From assembly GCA_023248265.1 (NCBI GenBank), contig JAHFEZ010000005.1, positions 1 to 38,920 of the forward strand: a DNA stretch of 38,920 bases, written 5' to 3'. This DNA comes from Deltaproteobacteria bacterium. Lineage in GTDB: Bacteria > Bdellovibrionota > JACOXK01 > 2-02-FULL-40-11. Below are positions 399 to 33,391 of this stretch, piece by piece. The first letter of the stretch is position 1; each line of letters begins with the position of its first letter. The notes under the pieces were generated by a model. That model made no database searches and was not told where the DNA came from. It saw only the letters and a list, made by a program, of their open reading frames with translations. The translations under genes and the position numbers were made by a program.

Positions 399-1276
399 GT
401 AAAATTTTTGAGTTTTTCAACGTAAGAAAGCCCTCCAGTATCATACACATTTCCATGATGGGCCCCCGAAATCGCATAAAATTCTTTGGGGACAGGGGCG
501 GCCTCAAAAAGATTTTGACCCAACCGGAAGGGAACCGTTTCATCTTCTGTACCATGAATAATAAGTTTGGGCATAGAAATAGATTTTATTTTTTCTAAAG
601 ATGCAAATTTACTTTTGACAAAAAGCCCCACGGGCAAATAAGGATAAAAAATCTTTGCCATATCCAATGCTGAAGTAAAAGTACTTTCCAAAATTAAGGC
701 TGATGCGAGCCGCTTGGAAGCCAAATCAACGGCGATCGCACCCCCTAAAGATTGTCCAAAGATAACAATATTTTTTTCTGAAATATGTTTTGTTTGCGTT
801 AAGTAACCGTAGGCCGCCTGAGCATCTTGATAAAGGCCTTCTTCGGAGGGGCGACCCTTGCTCTTTCCAAAGCCCCGATAATCTATAATAAAAACATTGA
901 GGTGCACTTTTTGGACAAATATCGAAATAAGCTCTAAATTATTGCTCACGTTTCCACTGTTGCCGTGAAAAAAAAGAAGTGTTTTTTGAGGATGCCTAGC
1001 TCCCCCAACTCCAACGACCGGAAAAAACCATCCATTTAATTTTATGTGGTCTTTTGTTTCAAAAAACACATTTTCAAACTTAAGATGATAGTGATCGGGC
1101 ATTTGCAAAATTTCTGCCTTGGGATGAAAAATAATATTTCCTTCATCAAGGCTTACTTTAAATGCATAGCCAAAATAACCCCCAAAACTCAAAAAGATGA
1201 GAAAAAGCAAAAGAATAGCAATTCTTTTTCTTTGCATAGCACCATCAACATACTCCTTTAAAGTTTTAGACCTCAA
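386..1276 (-). CDS. Membrane-anchored alpha/beta hydrolase (Bem46/ABHD13-like)
   Basis: N-terminal hydrophobic helix, FFHGNSGN, DYRGFGKS, nucleophile elbow GQSLG, HGTED acid and GAHH His. The true start may be ATG at 1237. Confidence 0.9.
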   Translation of the reverse strand: MRSKTLKEYVDGAMQRKRIAILLLFLIFLSFGGYFGYAFKVSLDEGNIIFHPKAEILQMPDHYHLKFENVFFETKDHIKLNGWFFPVVGVGGARHPQKTLLFFHGNSGNVSNNLELISIFVQKVHLNVFIIDYRGFGKSKGRPSEEGLYQDAQAAYGYLTQTKHISEKNIVIFGQSLGGAIAVDLASKRLASALILESTFTSALDMAKIFYPYLPVGLFVKSKFASLEKIKSISMPKLIIHGTEDETVPFRLGQNLFEAAPVPKEFYAISGAHHGNVYDTGGLSYVEKLKNFTQVF

Positions 1277-1299
1277 GAAAATTTATAACCGCCCGATAA
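1273..1299 (+). promoter_or_regulatory. sigma28 (FliA)-type promoter
   Basis: TCAA(G) at 1273, then N15, then CCCGATAA at 1292-1299. This matches TAAA-N15-GCCGATAA with exact spacing and is followed by an AGGAG RBS and ATG at 1329. Confidence 0.65.
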
Positions 1300-1328
1300 G
1301 CTTATGAAAACCAAACAAGGAGATAACC

Positions 1329-3179
1329 ATGAAAAACCCACGGCCCCAATCCATGATGATTTTAGCAATGACCCTTATATTTATTTCAACCAGCCTTCAT
1401 GCAGGATGGAACACGCTTAGACAGATCCAAATTCAAGGTAACAAAACGACGGTTCCAGAAGTCACGGGAAAGCCCCTACATACTGCAAAGGAAATTCTAA
1501 AAAGATCTGGGTTGCCATTTGAGGTTATCAATGAAGGACGCACTTTAAGCTCTGAAGAAAATGAACTCGTTACAAAACAAGAACCGAAAGCCAATAACCC
1601 CGTAACACAAGACACAAAAGTTAAATTATGGCTTAGTAAAGAAGCTGGTCAAGATGTTCAAGCAAAAAAATCGATCCCCAGTACCCTAATTAAAGTTCTT
1701 GAAAGCTCGCCCCAACACATCGCACTCTCGGGTCCCGATAGAGTGCGCCATGGTACTCTTTTTCAACTACAATGGACTCCTATCCGACAGATTCAGGAAT
1801 ATGAGCTCCACATGAGCCGTGACCGCAACTTTGCATACTTTGAAACTCAAAGGGTTATTGAAGCTAGAAGGGCCTTTCTTCAAAGTGCCAGCGAGGATGA
1901 TTCACATGTATACTTTCGCGTTCGTGCTATTTTTACAGATGGTAATCCCGGCATGTGGTCAAATATTAAAGATGTAACCATTACCGCCATGGAAGCCCCT
2001 CAACTTTCAATCAATAGAACTTCGGTTAATTCGGACCAACTTTACACGATGAATTGGTCCGTAGTTCAGGGGGCCACCTATTATTATGTGCAACGCTCAC
2101 CTCAGCCTTCTTTCCCTCGAGACCAAACTTTTTCATATCAAGTTGTCCCCAACTCTGATCAGCAGCATCATGAAGTCCATCAGAGAACTATCTATTATTA
2201 CCGAGTACAAGCAAGGCAAGACCTGAATAAGGGACGATGGTCTAATGCTGTTTCTGTGGCCATCGAACCCGGACGCAGCGCTACATCAGAAACACTGGCA
2301 GCTCCACGGCTTTCCACTTCAGCAACCAGTGTGTATGGCGGGAACGCTTTTCAATTAAGCTGGAGTAATATCCCAGGCGCTGTCCAATACGATTTTCAAA
2401 GCGCGGATAACCTTGAATTTAGACAGGGAGCCCTTTCTTCTCTTCAGTCCACCCAAACAACCTCTCGCATCAATATCAGAAATTTCCAAGACAGAGGAGT
2501 AACCTATTACCATCATGTACGCGCCCGCAATGAACAGGGCCCAGGCGCCTGGTCAAATATAGTGAGTGTCTCCATAAACCCTCTGCCAGCACCCCTGCTT
2601 ACGGTCAATTCCAATCAAGCTCAATCCGATCAAACTTACACGATTTCATGGTCACAAATTGAGCAGGCACGCGAATATATTGTGGAAGAATCTACGGCTC
2701 CTACCTTCTCAAGCGCAAACGTACGGTTGTATACTGTATCCAGCACAACATTGCCAGCTCACAACACCGTTTCTCAAAACATGCTCTACTACTACCGCGT
2801 TCGCGGGGACAATAGCCAAAGTGGTGGACGCTTTTCAAATATTGTAACCGTGGCAGTAAGTCCCTCACGAGGTACGGCTTCTACTCTTCCTGCTCCCACT
2901 CTTTCAGTTAATCCAACTCGGGTAATATCAAATGAAGCATTTGAACTGGGGTGGAATCGCATCACAGAGGCTCGAAACTATGATGTAGAAGAAAGTAGTG
3001 ACTCTACCTTCTCAAGGCCCAGCACTTTTGAAACAGAATTGCTACGATCAAGCATGCGAATTAATCTTAGCATTTCAAGACAAAGTACCACACACTACTA
3101 TCGTGTACGCGCCCGCAATGATCATGGCTCAGGTCCTTGGTCAAATATCATTCAAGTATTTATAGAATACCGAGAGTAA
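1329..3179 (+). CDS. Secreted PASTA-domain protein with five fibronectin type III-like repeats
   Basis: Signal peptide (ILAMTLIFISTSLHA), PASTA motif VPEVTGKPLHTAKEIL...VTKQEPKANNPV...VKLWLS (about aa 40-103), and five repeats ending YYxRVRA...GxWSN. Strong RBS. Confidence 0.85.
   Translation: MKNPRPQSMMILAMTLIFISTSLHAGWNTLRQIQIQGNKTTVPEVTGKPLHTAKEILKRSGLPFEVINEGRTLSSEENELVTKQEPKANNPVTQDTKVKLWLSKEAGQDVQAKKSIPSTLIKVLESSPQHIALSGPDRVRHGTLFQLQWTPIRQIQEYELHMSRDRNFAYFETQRVIEARRAFLQSASEDDSHVYFRVRAIFTDGNPGMWSNIKDVTITAMEAPQLSINRTSVNSDQLYTMNWSVVQGATYYYVQRSPQPSFPRDQTFSYQVVPNSDQQHHEVHQRTIYYYRVQARQDLNKGRWSNAVSVAIEPGRSATSETLAAPRLSTSATSVYGGNAFQLSWSNIPGAVQYDFQSADNLEFRQGALSSLQSTQTTSRINIRNFQDRGVTYYHHVRARNEQGPGAWSNIVSVSINPLPAPLLTVNSNQAQSDQTYTISWSQIEQAREYIVEESTAPTFSSANVRLYTVSSTTLPAHNTVSQNMLYYYRVRGDNSQSGGRFSNIVTVAVSPSRGTASTLPAPTLSVNPTRVISNEAFELGWNRITEARNYDVEESSDSTFSRPSTFETELLRSSMRINLSISRQSTTHYYRVRARNDHGSGPWSNIIQVFIEYRE
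2516..3121 (+). repeat. 18-nt exact direct repeat between FN3 units 3 and 5
   Basis: TGTACGCGCCCGCAATGA at 2516-2533 and 3104-3121; consistent with an internal duplication of a two-domain unit. Confidence 0.85.
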
Positions 3180-24716: not shown

Positions 24717-28478
<3,762 letters not shown>

Positions 28479-29591: not shown

Positions 29592-30707
29592 CTAAATTCT
29601 CATGGGCATAACTACACAGACGTAGTTATCGTCCCCTACAGATTTCATGACGCCAGGACTTAATTTGTCATTAAGCTCAATGGTGACTTGATCCCCATCC
29701 ATAGCATTGAGGATATCGATAAAATATTTTGCGTTAAATCCTACTTCAATGGCAGGTCCACTATAAGAAATTTCTATTTCTTCCTTAGCTTCTCCAACTT
29801 CTGGATTACTTGTCGATATTTCTAGGATCCCTTCTTTGGCTGCAAACTTAATAGCTCGGGATCTTTCATTTGAAAGAAGAGAAATGCGTTTTAAAGCCCC
29901 TAAAAATTTTTCCCTGTGTATGGTTATTTTCTTTTTATTGGATGGCGGAATAACTTGCTCATAATCAGGATATTCTCCTTCAATGAGCCGAATAAAGAGT
30001 ACCATTTTTTCTTTTTTTATAATTACATTACTGGAATCAAAGCCTATTTGATATTTCCCTTCGCCTTCTTCTAGAATTTTCTTAAGTTCACTCAATCCTT
30101 TTCTGGGAATAATAACTCCTCGAGTAAAAGAGAGCTCTTTAGAAAAGTCTAGGTGTTTATTAATAACACTCAGTCTATGTCCATCCGTAGCAACCATTCG
30201 AACCATATCTCCTGCTTTTTGGGGTTTTTCAAAAAAAACTCCATTGAGATGGTACCGAGTTTCATCATTAGAAACTGAAAAGATGGTTTTTGAAATCATC
30301 TCTTGAAGATCTTGAGGATCTACTTCAAAAAATTTTTTATCTTTATAGTTTGGAATCGCAGGATAATCATCTGCGGAAAGTCCTACAATATTAAACAAAG
30401 CCTTTCCCGAAATAATTTCTACCCAAAAGTTTTCTTTTTTTCTAAAAGAAATTTTTCCCTCAGGTGCTTCTCGAATAATATCATAGAGATTTCTAGCAGG
30501 AAGGGTGAGGCTCCCTTCTTTTAAAACAATAGCAGGATAGCTTCCGCGAATTCCAACTTCTAAATCTGTCGCTGTTAGAACCACCTGTCCTTTCTTTGCT
30601 TCAATTAGAACATTCGCTAAGATGGGCATCGCTGTTCTTCTCTCCACAATGCCTTGAACCCTGTGTAACCCTAAGAGCAATTCTTTTTTATCTATTGTAA
30701 ATTCCAT
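29592..30707 (-). CDS. dnaN: DNA polymerase III beta sliding clamp
   Basis: MPILANVL, ATDLEV, VATDGHRL, RLIEGEYPDY, GFNAKY, VVMPMRI. Confidence 0.98.
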   Translation of the reverse strand: MEFTIDKKELLLGLHRVQGIVERRTAMPILANVLIEAKKGQVVLTATDLEVGIRGSYPAIVLKEGSLTLPARNLYDIIREAPEGKISFRKKENFWVEIISGKALFNIVGLSADDYPAIPNYKDKKFFEVDPQDLQEMISKTIFSVSNDETRYHLNGVFFEKPQKAGDMVRMVATDGHRLSVINKHLDFSKELSFTRGVIIPRKGLSELKKILEEGEGKYQIGFDSSNVIIKKEKMVLFIRLIEGEYPDYEQVIPPSNKKKITIHREKFLGALKRISLLSNERSRAIKFAAKEGILEISTSNPEVGEAKEEIEISYSGPAIEVGFNAKYFIDILNAMDGDQVTIELNDKLSPGVMKSVGDDNYVCVVMPMRI

Positions 30708-30763
30708 ATGCGTTCTCCTGATAGGTTAAAAAGACTTATCCCCAAAAGATTCCCCTGCTACTG

Positions 30764-30826
30764 TTTTCTTATTATAATAAGATATAATTATAGTAGTAGT
30801 AGTAGTACCTGTGGATTTGTTCATAA
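30764..30826. other. DNA unwinding element: AT-rich tract, DnaA-trios and tandem DnaA boxes
   Basis: (TAG)x5 at 30791-30805, flanked by an almost pure A/T tract on one side and by CC plus boxes TGTGGATTT and TGTTCATAA (30810-30826) on the other. Confidence 0.85.
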
Positions 30827-31082
30827 CACACCCAAACATTTGTAATCAATGCATTTTCTCATGTGGATAAACTGTGGATATAGAAGTGGACAAAGCCCCC
30901 CTCCCTGTGGAGTTCTCAAATAACCCCCAGGTATGCACAGAAAAGTCCACAAGCTATCCACAGATTTTATGATGGGGGAAAAGAAATCTACGGCTGTTGA
31001 TGAATTTATGCGCATAAAGAGATCCCTTGGCCATCAAAAGAGAACTTTTCCACAGAAAAGGACGCACAGATGGCCTTTTTAA

Positions 31083-31095
31083 AATCAATGATTTG
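31083..31095 (+). promoter_or_regulatory. IHF binding site within oriC
   Basis: AATCAATGATTTG is a perfect WATCAANNNNTTR; a one-mismatch copy AATCAATGCATTT lies at 30844-30856. Confidence 0.6.
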
Positions 31096-31256
31096 AGAAT
31101 AGCTCTTTGTGGAAATGTGGAAAAGATATATAACACATTGAAAACACATAGATTTTACATGTGAATAAGCTGTTATTAAAAAGGGGGGCTCTAAAATAAT
31201 AAAAAAATTATACACAAGAAATCCACAGGCTATACACAAGGTTACACACAGAGTTA

Positions 31257-32633
31257 TTAATAGTTTTGGCTCTCAACAATTCTTTCTATAGAATCTAGGT
31301 CTTTCTTAAAAACAGGATCTTCTGTTGCCATCTGTGAAATTTTTCTAACAGCATGCATGACCGTTGAATGATCTTTTCCACCAAAAAACTTTCCAATCTC
31401 TGGAAAAGATTTTTGGGTATATTTTCGGCAAAGGTACATAGCTACTTGCCTTGGATGTGACAAAATCTTAATTTTCTTTTTGGATTTAAGGTCTATAATC
31501 TTAACATTGTAGAAGGTAGACACGTTTTTTTGGATGTCATCTAAAGAAATAGAAACTGATTTTTGTTGGATCACATTTTTAAGGACATCTTTGGCAAGGT
31601 CTACGGTTACTTCCATTCCTGTAAGCGAAGCAAAGGCGCCAATACGAATGAGAGAACCTTCCAGCTCTCGCACATTAGATTTAATATGCGTGGCCAGATA
31701 GATGGCCACATCATCTGGAAGATAAATATCATCCCCTTCGGCCTTGTTTTTAAGAATGGCAATGCGTGTTTCCATCTCCGGGGGCTGAATATCGGCGATC
31801 AATCCCCATTCAAATCTAGTTCTGAGGCGCTCTTCTAAGCCCTTAATATCTTTTGGAAATTTGTCGCTTGTAACAACAATTTGCTTTCGAGAGCTATGAA
31901 GCGTATTGAATGTGTGGAAAAACTCTTCTTGGGTACGATCTTTTCCAGCAATAAATTGGATGTCATCCATTAAAAGAACGTCGCATTGGTCCCGATATTT
32001 TTTTCGAAACTGATCCATTTTTTCATACCGCATGCAATTGATGAGCTCATTCATAAAACGTTCAGAAGCAATATAACAAACGCGGTAGCCTGGATGTTTT
32101 TGTTGAATATGGTTTCCAATGGCATTTAAAAGGTGTGTTTTTCCAAGTCCTACGCCCCCAAAGACAAAAAGGGGATTGTAGCTCCCCCCAGGCTGCTCAG
32201 ATGCTGCATAAGCAGCGGCGTGGCAAAACTGGTTACTTGTGCCAACTACGAAGTTTTCAAAGGTATATTTTGGGTTAAGTACGTCGGGCCCCTGAAATTT
32301 AGGCTGCGAGACCTGAACAGAAATAGAGGCAGGCGTTGTAGAAGCGTGTGGCAAGGCGGCTTCTTGTTGAATAATTTTTTCAAGAGGCTCAGGCACGGCC
32401 CCAGATTTAAAAATAAGCTCATAGGGACGATTGGTCAGTTGTTTTAAGAGATCTTTGATATAAGAAAGATAATTGTCATGAAACCAGGTCTCATAAAAAT
32501 TATTGGGAGTTCCTAATTCTATCACGGTATCTGTGATAGAAAGAACCTTGGTGGGCTCAATCCAAACCCGATAACTATGAGATGGGACTTTTTCTTTGAG
32601 TTTTTCTAAAATCTGGTCCCAGAGATGATTCAT
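31257..32633 (-). CDS. dnaA: Chromosomal replication initiator
   Basis: LNPKYTFENFVVG, YNPLFVFGGVGLGKTHL, DDIQFI, QEEFFHTFN, NVRELEG, GGKDHSTVMHA. Confidence 0.99.
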   Translation of the reverse strand: MNHLWDQILEKLKEKVPSHSYRVWIEPTKVLSITDTVIELGTPNNFYETWFHDNYLSYIKDLLKQLTNRPYELIFKSGAVPEPLEKIIQQEAALPHASTTPASISVQVSQPKFQGPDVLNPKYTFENFVVGTSNQFCHAAAYAASEQPGGSYNPLFVFGGVGLGKTHLLNAIGNHIQQKHPGYRVCYIASERFMNELINCMRYEKMDQFRKKYRDQCDVLLMDDIQFIAGKDRTQEEFFHTFNTLHSSRKQIVVTSDKFPKDIKGLEERLRTRFEWGLIADIQPPEMETRIAILKNKAEGDDIYLPDDVAIYLATHIKSNVRELEGSLIRIGAFASLTGMEVTVDLAKDVLKNVIQQKSVSISLDDIQKNVSTFYNVKIIDLKSKKKIKILSHPRQVAMYLCRKYTQKSFPEIGKFFGGKDHSTVMHAVRKISQMATEDPVFKKDLDSIERIVESQNY

Positions 32634-32684
32634 GCTGTCATTCCGTTTTTATTGTTACAATACCTAAAAAAGTTTGAACGGCAC

Positions 32685-32713
32685 AAACTACCAAAAAGAA
32701 AAATGCATTTCAA
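32685..32713 (-). promoter_or_regulatory. Putative sigma70 promoter of dnaA
   Basis: Minus strand TTGAAA-N17-TAGTTT, with a TGn extension. Confidence 0.5.
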
Positions 32714-32790
32714 GCAAAAGATATTTTATTTTAATTTTCGTCTAAGAAATTAGAAGAATGTCATCGATGTCCTTAGCTACCGAGAAGCCG

Positions 32791-32821
32791 TTGACAATGG
32801 TTTAAAAATATGGTCTAGCCT
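32791..32821 (+). promoter_or_regulatory. Putative rpmH promoter
   Basis: Perfect TTGACA at 32791-32796; the best -10 (TAGCCT, 32816-32821) has a long 19-nt spacer. Confidence 0.35.
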
Positions 32822-32831
32822 TTAAAGACAT

Positions 32832-32981
32832 ATGAAGCGAACGTATCAACCCAGCAATAGCCGAAGGCTTAAGAGACATGGATTTTTAAAACGTCAAGCT
32901 ACTCCCGGCGGAAAAAACGTCTTAAGAAGACGACGTGCAAAAGGACGCCATGTCTTGACCGTACAAATTGCAACAAAATAA
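32832..32981 (+). CDS. rpmH: 50S ribosomal protein L34 (49 aa; not in the ORF track)
   Basis: [49 protein letters not shown]. Confidence 0.98.
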
Positions 32982-32992
32982 TCCTCCCCCAC

Positions 32993-33391
32993 ATGATAAA
33001 GCAGACCTTTTCAAAAGCCCAAAGGATTTTAAAGCGGGCGGAATATCAAACTATTTTGCAAAAAGGTACCCGGTCTTTAACAGAGCACTTCATTTTATTT
33101 TATTTACAAAATGACAAAGAAATAAATAGGCTGGGCCTGGTTGTAAGTAGAAAGGCAGGAAAGGCTGTTCAAAGAAATAGAATTAAAAGGACGGTTCGAG
33201 AATATTTTAGGCTTCAAAATACAATAGATTCACATCCGAGGCCTTTTCACGACCTGGTGTTTATCAGTAAAAAAAATATCCAAAGCTTGACCTATCAAGC
33301 GGTTTGTCTGGAAATGAAAAAGTTTTATGAAAAAGAGTTTTATCGGGATCATTACACTGTACCAAAGGACGCTATCGCTGCTTCTACCTAG
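32993..33391 (+). CDS. rnpA: Ribonuclease P protein component
   Basis: RLGLVVSRKAGKAVQRNRIKR (RNR motif); follows rpmH. Confidence 0.95.
   Translation: MIKQTFSKAQRILKRAEYQTILQKGTRSLTEHFILFYLQNDKEINRLGLVVSRKAGKAVQRNRIKRTVREYFRLQNTIDSHPRPFHDLVFISKKNIQSLTYQAVCLEMKKFYEKEFYRDHYTVPKDAIAAST

Follow-up and report, generated by a model that had tools for sequence, protein, structure and literature searches.

The stretch of DNA analysed here, referred to as the window, comprises positions 1–38,920 of contig JAHFEZ010000005.1 (assembly GCA_023248265.1) of a Deltaproteobacteria bacterium placed in the Bdellovibrionota. Our subject is the gene found at positions 1329–3179 of its plus strand, whose product (P0001) combines a PASTA domain with five fibronectin type III (FN3) modules, and more specifically the scarcity of lysine (Lys) in the arginine (Arg)-rich region that these modules form, called the rod below. 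The coding sequence is defined by the list of open reading frames (ORFs) and its translation, and by orthologs that are 62–64% identical to it; positions 1329–3176 encode 616 residues, residue 123 beginning at base 1695. The ATG at 1329 is supported as the start codon by a Shine-Dalgarno sequence, AAGGAG, read 6 bases before it (positions 1317–1322, plus strand), while the database form of the protein (P0002) starts 8 codons downstream.

The N-terminus of the protein combines a charged start, a hydrophobic core and an LHA motif that the orthologs share, and is probably a Sec signal peptide (residues 1–25; positions 1329–1403, plus strand) cleaved after LHA, the alternative being an uncleaved membrane anchor. 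The PASTA domain (residues 41–104; positions 1449–1640, plus strand) contains 8 Lys and 2 Arg and is recognized by Pfam PF03793 (E 6.6e-12; 45.6 bits for a cut-off of 23.2), the match covering profile positions 2–64 of 64; in the genome search, the protein was retrieved with E 3.0e-13. From its family membership, this head would bind peptidoglycan or muropeptide. It is followed by a linker (residues 105–125; positions 1641–1703, plus strand) that contains K113, K114 and K122, is gapped and variable in length among orthologs and is predicted to be disordered, the AlphaFold2 pLDDT (predicted local distance difference test) being below 50 over residues 105–127. The FN3-like modules come next on the same strand: module 1 (residues 126–221; positions 1704–1991), which holds K214, module 2 (residues 222–314; positions 1992–2270), which holds K301, and modules 3 (residues 315–417; positions 2271–2579), 4 (residues 418–512; positions 2580–2864) and 5 (residues 513–616; positions 2865–3176), which are devoid of Lys. 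All five are delineated by the repeat alignment, the repeat profile (E 5.1e-32 for module 1, a modelled beta-sandwich) and the structural model, and module 5 is in addition detected by Pfam PF00041 (E 3.4e-7), whose best stretch spans residues 534–610. On the whole protein PF00041 scores 30.8 bits for a cut-off of 25, over three stretches. The same profile matched nothing in the genome of the window (G000) at E <= 1e-6, which indicates that the repeats are divergent members of the family.

The AlphaFold2 model, based on a 10-sequence alignment (mean pLDDT 80.7), displays a helix (residues 7–36), a small alpha/beta PASTA unit (residues 39–103), the disordered linker and five all-beta modules with block pLDDT values mostly between 70 and 94. 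When compared with the PDB by Foldseek, it best matches tandem FN3/Ig arrays (E 4.7e-20 and weaker), among them gp130, LAR, fibronectin fragments and the Aureispira grappling-hook protein; a sequence search of the PDB gave no match at E <= 0.01. The grappling-hook protein GhpA (PDB codes: 9flw, 9flp and 9flv), its analogue in structure among the bacterial entries, is, like the window protein, a tandem beta-sandwich rod, but the window protein is much smaller and the likeness is one of fold alone, with 13–16% identity. The protein also shares with the PknB/Stk1 kinases and the PBP2x-type penicillin-binding proteins a single PASTA domain placed after an N-terminal hydrophobic helix, but it contains no kinase or transpeptidase domain. 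NCBIfam NF033483 aligns residues 8–107 with the Stk1 membrane helix and first PASTA domain (positions 333–431) with 36 bits; identity with the Stk1/PknB PASTA kinases was rejected, given the cut-off of 450 and the absence of the kinase domain. More generally, no catalytic or effector domain was found in the protein by Pfam and NCBIfam scans.

The five modules are only 19.6–37.6% identical to each other, and the repeat alignment displays in every one of them a conserved Tyr/Arg, Arg-rich strand motif. They fall into two alternating types that differ at the start of the B strand (Ser-Asp-Gln/Tyr-Thr versus Gly-x-x-Phe), their order being A-B-A-B-A in the window protein (1704–3176), A-B-A in a paralog (L008:1149–2069) and A-B-A-B in a protein of the same genus (L002:1108–2394). 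A pair of modules may thus be the unit of evolution.

Lysine and arginine in the rod

Thirteen Lys are present in residues 1–122 (at positions 2, 39, 48, 54, 58, 83, 87, 97, 99, 104, 113, 114 and 122), versus only two in residues 123–616, namely K214, in an IKD context, and K301, in an NKG context. The rod thereby ends with a Lys-free run of 315 residues (302–616; positions 2232–3176, plus strand), counted on the translation, which is the longest in the genome. Arg accounts for 42 of the 494 residues from 123 onwards (8.5%), giving a Lys/(Lys + Arg) ratio of 0.045. These 494 residues also comprise 102 Ser and Thr taken together, 36 Gln, 31 Asn and 25 Tyr, and their net charge is about +1 (44 cationic versus 43 acidic residues). 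There is no Cys among the 616 residues of the protein.

The genome, which is 61.6% complete and has a GC content of 40%, provides the first baseline. A crude call of the longest non-overlapping ORFs gave 1048 frames covering 92% of its 1.16 Mb, with 7.79% Lys and 4.40% Arg. At this Lys frequency, the probability of finding at most two Lys in 494 residues is 3.6e-15. Elsewhere in the genome, the lowest 494-residue window contains 13 Lys (179 ORFs of at least 494 residues), no other ORF displays a Lys-free window of 300 residues (522 ORFs of at least 300 residues) and the second-longest Lys-free run, of 230 residues, belongs to a paralog. The composition of the rod is not that of exported proteins in general either: among ORFs of at least 100 residues, sorted by a signal-peptide heuristic of our own, the median Lys content is 7.4% for predicted signal-peptide proteins (n = 238) and 8.6% for cytoplasmic ones (n = 493). 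With such a median for exported proteins, the rod lies far outside the secreted-protein range of this genome, and the idea that secreted proteins form a general Lys-poor class in this organism was rejected.

The original prediction, made from the sequence of the window, had reported this distribution of Lys, together with the abundance of Arg, the lack of Cys and the Lys-rich background, and had listed a value within the normal range of secreted proteins as what would argue against a special composition. All these observations are borne out and the rod is outside that range, although the lack of Cys is unremarkable, as 41 of the 522 ORFs of at least 300 residues contain none. It had further placed the change in Lys content at the PASTA/FN3 boundary, which proves correct: the PASTA domain covers residues 41–104, the linker (residues 105–127) contains 3 Lys and the first FN3 module begins at about residue 126–138. 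PASTA segments of the phylum have an ordinary Lys content (3–8 Lys per 52–64 residues). The sharpness of the boundary is thus explained by the fusion of a Lys-normal PASTA head to a Lys-poor rod, and the boundary marks where two domains of different compositional regimes were joined. Note that PASTA occurs in 59 of 101 genomes of the phylum, nearly always as a single copy and in frames of ~640–690 residues that we take to be penicillin-binding proteins; in G057, three PASTA units share a 230-residue frame located at a contig end.

Lysine in FN3 proteins of the genus, the phylum and beyond

Two orthologs with the same PASTA–FN3 layout, P0003 and P0004, are present in the protein collection; their rods hold 3 and 4 Lys, and PF28308 appears in their precomputed domain lists. 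The layout is uncommon, since PASTA is found in 3 of the 120 matches listed, the window's own entry included. A search of genome contigs with the ortholog alignment returned 54 pattern matches, none of which is a relative, and the same alignment run against metagenome contigs identified one ortholog locus (L044), whose product is almost the same protein as P0004, with 602 of 605 residues identical. This ortholog contains 2.3% Lys and 9.1% Arg, with 4 Lys in the rod, and is encoded on a contig of 38% GC where the other ORFs contain 5.5–9.8% Lys. A conserved gene neighbourhood was rejected, as the genes flanking this locus are unrelated to those of the window.

The same bias is found in the FN3 proteins of the genus. 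A three-module paralog encoded in the same genome (C32:984–2072, P0012; PF00041, 32.4 bits) contains 1.4% Lys and 6.4% Arg, and the FN3 proteins of the same genus, one of which (L002) is identical to P0006, contain 0.9–2.5% Lys and 6.2–8.0% Arg, for 4.7–16.9% Lys in the adjoining ORFs. A profile built from eight repeats gave strong matches (E < 1e-17) confined to three genomes of the genus, and none of the six other genomes of the family was matched at E <= 1e-5. The paralog gene (L008) and its counterpart in another genome (G002; L003) have similar upstream sequences, and the latter begins at the end of an upstream ORF (359 residues, 4.7% Lys, 1.9% Arg), with which it may form an operon.

Low Lys extends well beyond the genus. 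The 119 sequence relatives of the protein, a set biased by having been collected with a Lys-poor query, have a median Lys content of 1.7% and a median Arg content of 4.4%; 88 of them contain at most 2.5% Lys and 7 contain none. In the 86 relatives with sequence enough on both sides, Lys amounts to 1.9% outside the FN3 modules and 1.5% inside, the inside value being the lower one in 51; most relatives are thus Lys-poor over their entire length, and the sharp internal boundary of the window protein is unusual. As a control, we searched 121 genomes of the phylum with the Pfam fn3 profile, which matched 62 of them at E <= 1e-6, and picked from the 150 matches listed 20 loci of at most 20 kb (one per genome, 19 genera), favouring long contigs and leaving out two giant ORFs and the genomes with short contigs. 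The FN3 proteins at these loci have a mean Lys content of 2.2% and a mean Arg content of 2.5%, the fn3 segments themselves 1.4% and 2.75%, and the flanking ORFs 6.6% and 4.6%. At all 20 loci the FN3 protein contains less Lys than its flanks, a consistent pattern to which no significance test applies, the proteins being kin and hence not independent.

Altogether, these data show that low Lys is a trait of the exported FN3 class, and no private adaptation of this organism. The original prediction had presented equally Lys-poor FN3 repeats in unrelated taxa as an observation that would undermine a special role for the rod, and this is largely what is found in the 119 relatives and the 20 loci. 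The window protein resembles the exported FN3 proteins (PF00041) of the phylum in being low in Lys relative to its neighbours and in lacking Cys, which is absent or scarce in all of them, but differs from the 20 sampled proteins by its Arg content, about three times theirs, by its N-terminal PASTA domain and by its Lys/(Lys + Arg) ratio, which ranges from 0.19 to 0.63 in the sample. For two Lys among 44 cationic residues, the binomial probability is 0.006 at a ratio of 0.19 and 3e-6 at 0.34, reaching 2.5e-9. A composition gradient reported for bacterial proteins follows a comparable line: extracellular proteins are enriched in Ser, Thr, Asn and aromatic residues and depleted in Arg, Lys and His, periplasmic proteins being intermediate (PMC11928666). 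The rod is alike in its richness in Ser, Thr, Asn, Gln and Tyr and in its few Lys, and the head is Lys-normal, but the published trend lowers Arg too, whereas the Arg content of the rod is nearly doubled.

Codon usage, conservation and promoter

The rod region has a GC content of 46.8%, versus 40% for the genome. This excess sits at codon position 2 (0.47, 99th percentile) and is thus due to the amino acids used. GC at position 3 (GC3) is 0.39, for a genome value of 0.344 +/- 0.037; once amino-acid content and genome codon usage are taken into account, it corresponds to z = +2.0, in a genome where 9.8% of 522 genes score above 1.9. By the same measure, the other genes of the family fall on the opposite side, with z at -2.8 for the paralog and between -0.6 and -2.0 for the FN3 genes of the same genus. 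The codon usage is thus native, and a recent foreign origin was rejected on this ground; recent duplication was likewise rejected as the cause of the composition, the repeats being only 20–38% identical. With modules this divergent, Lys must have been kept out of each of them independently, and AGA or AGG, from which Lys is a single transition away, make up ~29% of the Arg codons.

An alignment of the orthologs shows how Arg is conserved. Of the 56 Arg columns of the rod, 31 are invariant, compared with 33 of 92 for Ser, 18 of 73 for Thr, 17 of 50 for Gln and 15 of 39 for Glu (284 of 492 columns overall); in the 25 variable ones, the partner of Arg is Gln in 11, Ser in 8 and Lys in 3. These results point to purifying selection maintaining a composition that chance, recent duplication and recent transfer fail to explain. 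The view that the composition has been selected, put forward in the original prediction, therefore stands. Its suggestion that the module had been fused in from elsewhere stands in part: the rarity of the PASTA–FN3 fusion among the matches listed speaks for it, and the native codon usage against it.

A FliA (sigma28)-type promoter-like site, TCAAG-N15-CCGATA (positions 1273–1298, plus strand), can be read ~31 bases before the ATG, and the gene is probably transcribed from it. The counterpart layouts are TAAAG-N15-CCGATA for the ortholog at L044 and TTAAA-N15-CCGATA for P0006 in L002; the motif is absent upstream of P0012 and of two other genes of the genus. The site resembles the attack-phase consensus of Bdellovibrio bacteriovorus, TTAAG-N16-CCGATA, which is ascribed to FliA and reportedly drives, among others, cell-surface proteins (PMC3627812), with a spacer of N15 instead of N16. 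FliA itself is encoded in the genome of the window (266.9 bits, above the cut-off). Within 150 bases upstream of the 1048 ORFs, the motif occurs 8 times, and the gene studied here is the only Lys-poor one among these eight, while the paralog and the three orphan Lys-poor genes whose upstream regions were inspected lack it. This argues against the class of Lys-poor, sigma28-preceded genes that had been envisaged. Note that a FliA/WhiG-type sigma factor scores above the cut-off in 6 of 6 genomes of the family (G000:C43:4553–5224; G001–G004 and G006; 61.6–100% complete), and that the flagellin N-terminal domain PF00669 was found in none of these six. The presence of FliA throughout, set against flagellin in none, suggests that the sigma28 of this lineage may serve a non-flagellar programme.

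In the rest of the window, the gyrB gene (24717–28439, minus strand) encodes a 1240-residue product with an intein (Pfam Intein_splicing, residues 444–869) inserted between the GyrB core and the Toprim domain. The ~30700–33000 region is probably the replication origin: one side carries dnaA (31257–32633, minus strand), dnaN, recF, gyrB and gyrA, the other side rnpA, yidC, mnmE and mnmG, and the minimum of the cumulative GC skew is located near 30–31 kb.

Why the rod is so poor in lysine

The reading we favour, and hold to be reasonably probable as a whole, is that of an exported FN3 rod with a PASTA head in which the lack of Lys is the extreme of a class rule; the reason for excluding Lys is its weakest step. 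The organism can be regarded as diderm, since the window encodes TamB, BamA and SurA. The protein would be exported by the Sec pathway into the envelope, where the PASTA head would tether it to peptidoglycan and the ~20-residue linker would confer flexibility. The five anciently diverged FN3 modules would form a stalk, of ~15–20 nm if estimated from the usual size of such modules, that might project to the outer envelope or outside. Exported bacterial FN3 proteins, the window protein among them, resemble extracellular proteins in their composition, with abundant Ser, Thr, Asn, Gln and Tyr and little Lys, and in the small FN3 family of this genus Arg supplies nearly all of the positive charge, purifying selection at the protein level holding this composition against the AT-rich, Lys-rich background. 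The benefit of having no Lys might be that a long-lived, exposed rod resists Lys-directed damage, reactive or cleavable amines being absent from it, while Arg would keep it soluble and salt-bridged. Expression would be driven from the FliA-type promoter.

Several points weigh against this reading. What is outlying is the choice of the cation and not the Lys count: compared with the 1.4% of the fn3 segments, two Lys in 494 residues are only mildly low (P = 0.031), and the class rule offers no explanation for an Arg content of 8.5% where 2.5–2.75% is the norm. With 31 invariant Arg columns out of 56, the cause could lie in part in positive selection for Arg. Exchange between Arg and Lys among orthologs affects 4 of 13 variable Arg columns in the head versus 3 of 25 in the rod, numbers that are small and a difference that is not significant. 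The baseline itself rests in part on the 119 relatives, whose selection is biased and whose genomic backgrounds are not known, and both the ORF calls and the signal-peptide classes are heuristics of our own. Finally, the protein yielded no sorting signal that would take it across the outer membrane, and a location of the rod beyond the periplasm is only a prediction.

The original prediction had also proposed that the rod works in a compartment where Lys is a liability. Only the generic part of this idea stands, namely that the rod has a composition of the extracellular type. Host ubiquitination, one of the liabilities invoked, is unlikely, given the Sec signal peptide and the extracellular-type FN3 modules, and cross-linking is backed only by a widespread enzyme family. 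More specifically, an ORF with a predicted signal peptide and a transglutaminase-core domain (G000:C59:25182–26177; 95.2 bits) is present in all three genomes of the genus, but its presence says little since the family also matches 10 of 14 control genomes. Lysyl oxidase was found in none of the three genomes of the genus, and in no control genome either; a YkuD L,D-transpeptidase was not found in the genome of the window, which is 61.6% complete. Three other signal-peptide ORFs of this genome (G000:C14:9547–10146, C34:15462–16409 and C41:14617–15180; L033–L035) have a mature Lys content of 0–0.7%, two of them being also Arg-rich: one combines an Arg/Asp/Ser-rich region with a hydrophobic tail whose last residues are Arg, the tail of another is long and rich in Pro, and the third is rich in Asn, Gly and Tyr and lipoprotein-like. 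A Pfam scan of five signal-peptide ORFs, of which four are Lys-poor or Arg-rich and the fifth, C59:36105–36839, is acidic, detected no family, and the NCBIfam score of C34:15462–16409 (22.1 bits) is below the 250-bit cut-off.

These observations bear on the possibility, unlikely in our opinion, that the rod of this genus has been purged of Lys as a defence against a Lys-specific attack from its own, prey or host surroundings to which Arg is immune, be it a lysyl endopeptidase, an amine-reactive chemistry or enzymatic cross-linking through Lys. Such a defence would account for a Lys/(Lys + Arg) ratio far below that of the sampled FN3 proteins and for the replacement of Arg by Gln or Ser, rarely by Lys; it is also consistent with the conservation in the genus of the exported transglutaminase-core protein and with the existence in the genome of four other orphan signal-peptide proteins that are Lys-poor. 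On the other hand, no Lys-specific enzyme was identified, the transglutaminase-core family is as common in controls as stated above, lysyl oxidase and YkuD were not found, and a general hazard would have to spare most predicted exported proteins, whose Lys content is normal. Alternatively, Arg may be what is selected, the lack of Lys being a by-product: the Arg-rich faces of the modules would serve to bind a polyanion or to stack against aromatic residues, roles in which Lys is no substitute. The Arg content of the rod, which exceeds that of both the proteome and the sampled FN3 proteins, the invariance of Arg columns, above that of Ser, Thr, Gln and Glu, and the Arg-rich strand motif of each repeat are all in line with this explanation. 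However, the rod is no polycation, with a net charge of about +1, the 25 Arg columns that vary imply that Arg moves around the rod instead of occupying a single fixed site, and no ligand is known, so that we see this explanation, too, as an unlikely one.

A third explanation would make the composition a relic, the FN3 family having come, Arg-rich and Lys-poor, from a GC-rich donor and lagging behind its recipient genome. Indeed, high Arg and low Lys go together in many of the nearest relatives from outside the genus, 29 of the 119 relatives containing at least 6% Arg and at most 2.5% Lys; the labels of several relatives point to lineages such as Anaerolineae, which are GC-rich, and the rod region has a raised GC content. 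Yet the excess lies at codon position 2 and GC3 differs little from that of the genome, being ordinary here and below expectation in the paralog and the genus relatives when amino acids are allowed for. Moreover, the trait persists in orthologs that are 62–64% identical and in repeats that are 20–38% identical, despite the single transition that separates ~29% of the Arg codons from Lys, and an ancient transfer, though conceivable, would alone leave this persistence unexplained; a relic is therefore very unlikely. Even less credence, close to none, can be given to evasion of host ubiquitin by a rod acting in a eukaryotic cytosol in the manner of the Lys-poor toxin A chains. Lysine deserts (reviewed in 2026, PMC13696103) have been defined by sequence as Lys-free stretches that reach 150 residues or half of the protein (Szulc et al. 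2023, PMC10665810), and the window protein fits these lengths, its 315-residue run representing 51% of its 616 residues; the small size of the genome, ~1.9 Mb when 1.16 Mb is scaled by the 61.6% completeness, is a further point in favour. In contrast, the deserts described so far belong to cytosolic proteins and go with tagging by ubiquitin or Pup, to which a protein exported by its sequence is not exposed, and a search of the genome (61.6% complete) for the Pup ligase family PF03136 found none. The Sec signal peptide, the PASTA head and FN3 modules of a type usual in extracellular scaffolds, the lack of any catalytic or effector domain found and the same Lys poverty in FN3 proteins across the phylum all argue against it, and no result indicates a eukaryotic host. 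Toxins with a sharp Arg/Lys switch between domains do offer a parallel, in that the switch is likewise independent of GC and located within one protein, but the window protein lacks a catalytic toxin domain, nothing points to its passage through a host endoplasmic reticulum, and its Lys-poor part is a structural repeat array.

A more speculative idea, which we consider quite unlikely, is that of a polar extracytoplasmic lysine desert. Lys being present only in the head and the linker, a Lys-directed chemistry of the envelope would fix the head alone and leave the Gln-rich, Lys-free rod free and unbranched, or acting as an acyl donor; with a FliA-type promoter and flagellin undetected, the protein would be a stage-specific stalk for dispersal or attack. 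The conserved exported transglutaminase-like enzyme or cell-wall cross-linking might provide this chemistry.

In conclusion, the favoured reading of the gene at 1329–3179 is that its product is an exported FN3-repeat protein with an uncommon PASTA fusion and an extreme choice of Arg over Lys. The lack of Lys in FN3 rods is mostly normal for exported bacterial FN3 proteins, and these proteins, more than the proteome as a whole, are the baseline with which similar cases should be compared. In the parts of the lysine-desert literature drawn on here (PMC10665810, PMC13696103), the contexts are cytosolic ubiquitin or Pup systems and toxin A chains, and exported proteins are not considered; the words 'secreted' and 'extracellular' are absent from the whole text of the review (PMC13696103). 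A literature search gave nothing specific on secreted bacterial proteins poor in Lys or on the composition of FN3 modules, which is no proof of absence in print. That a family at the level of a genus is near-exclusive in Arg within a Lys-rich, AT-rich genome is clear evidence that selection can hold the choice between Arg and Lys against mutation pressure. Finally, the PASTA–FN3 fusion and the FliA-type promoter, in a lineage where flagellin is undetected, provide handles on the envelope biology of an uncultured group with small genomes.

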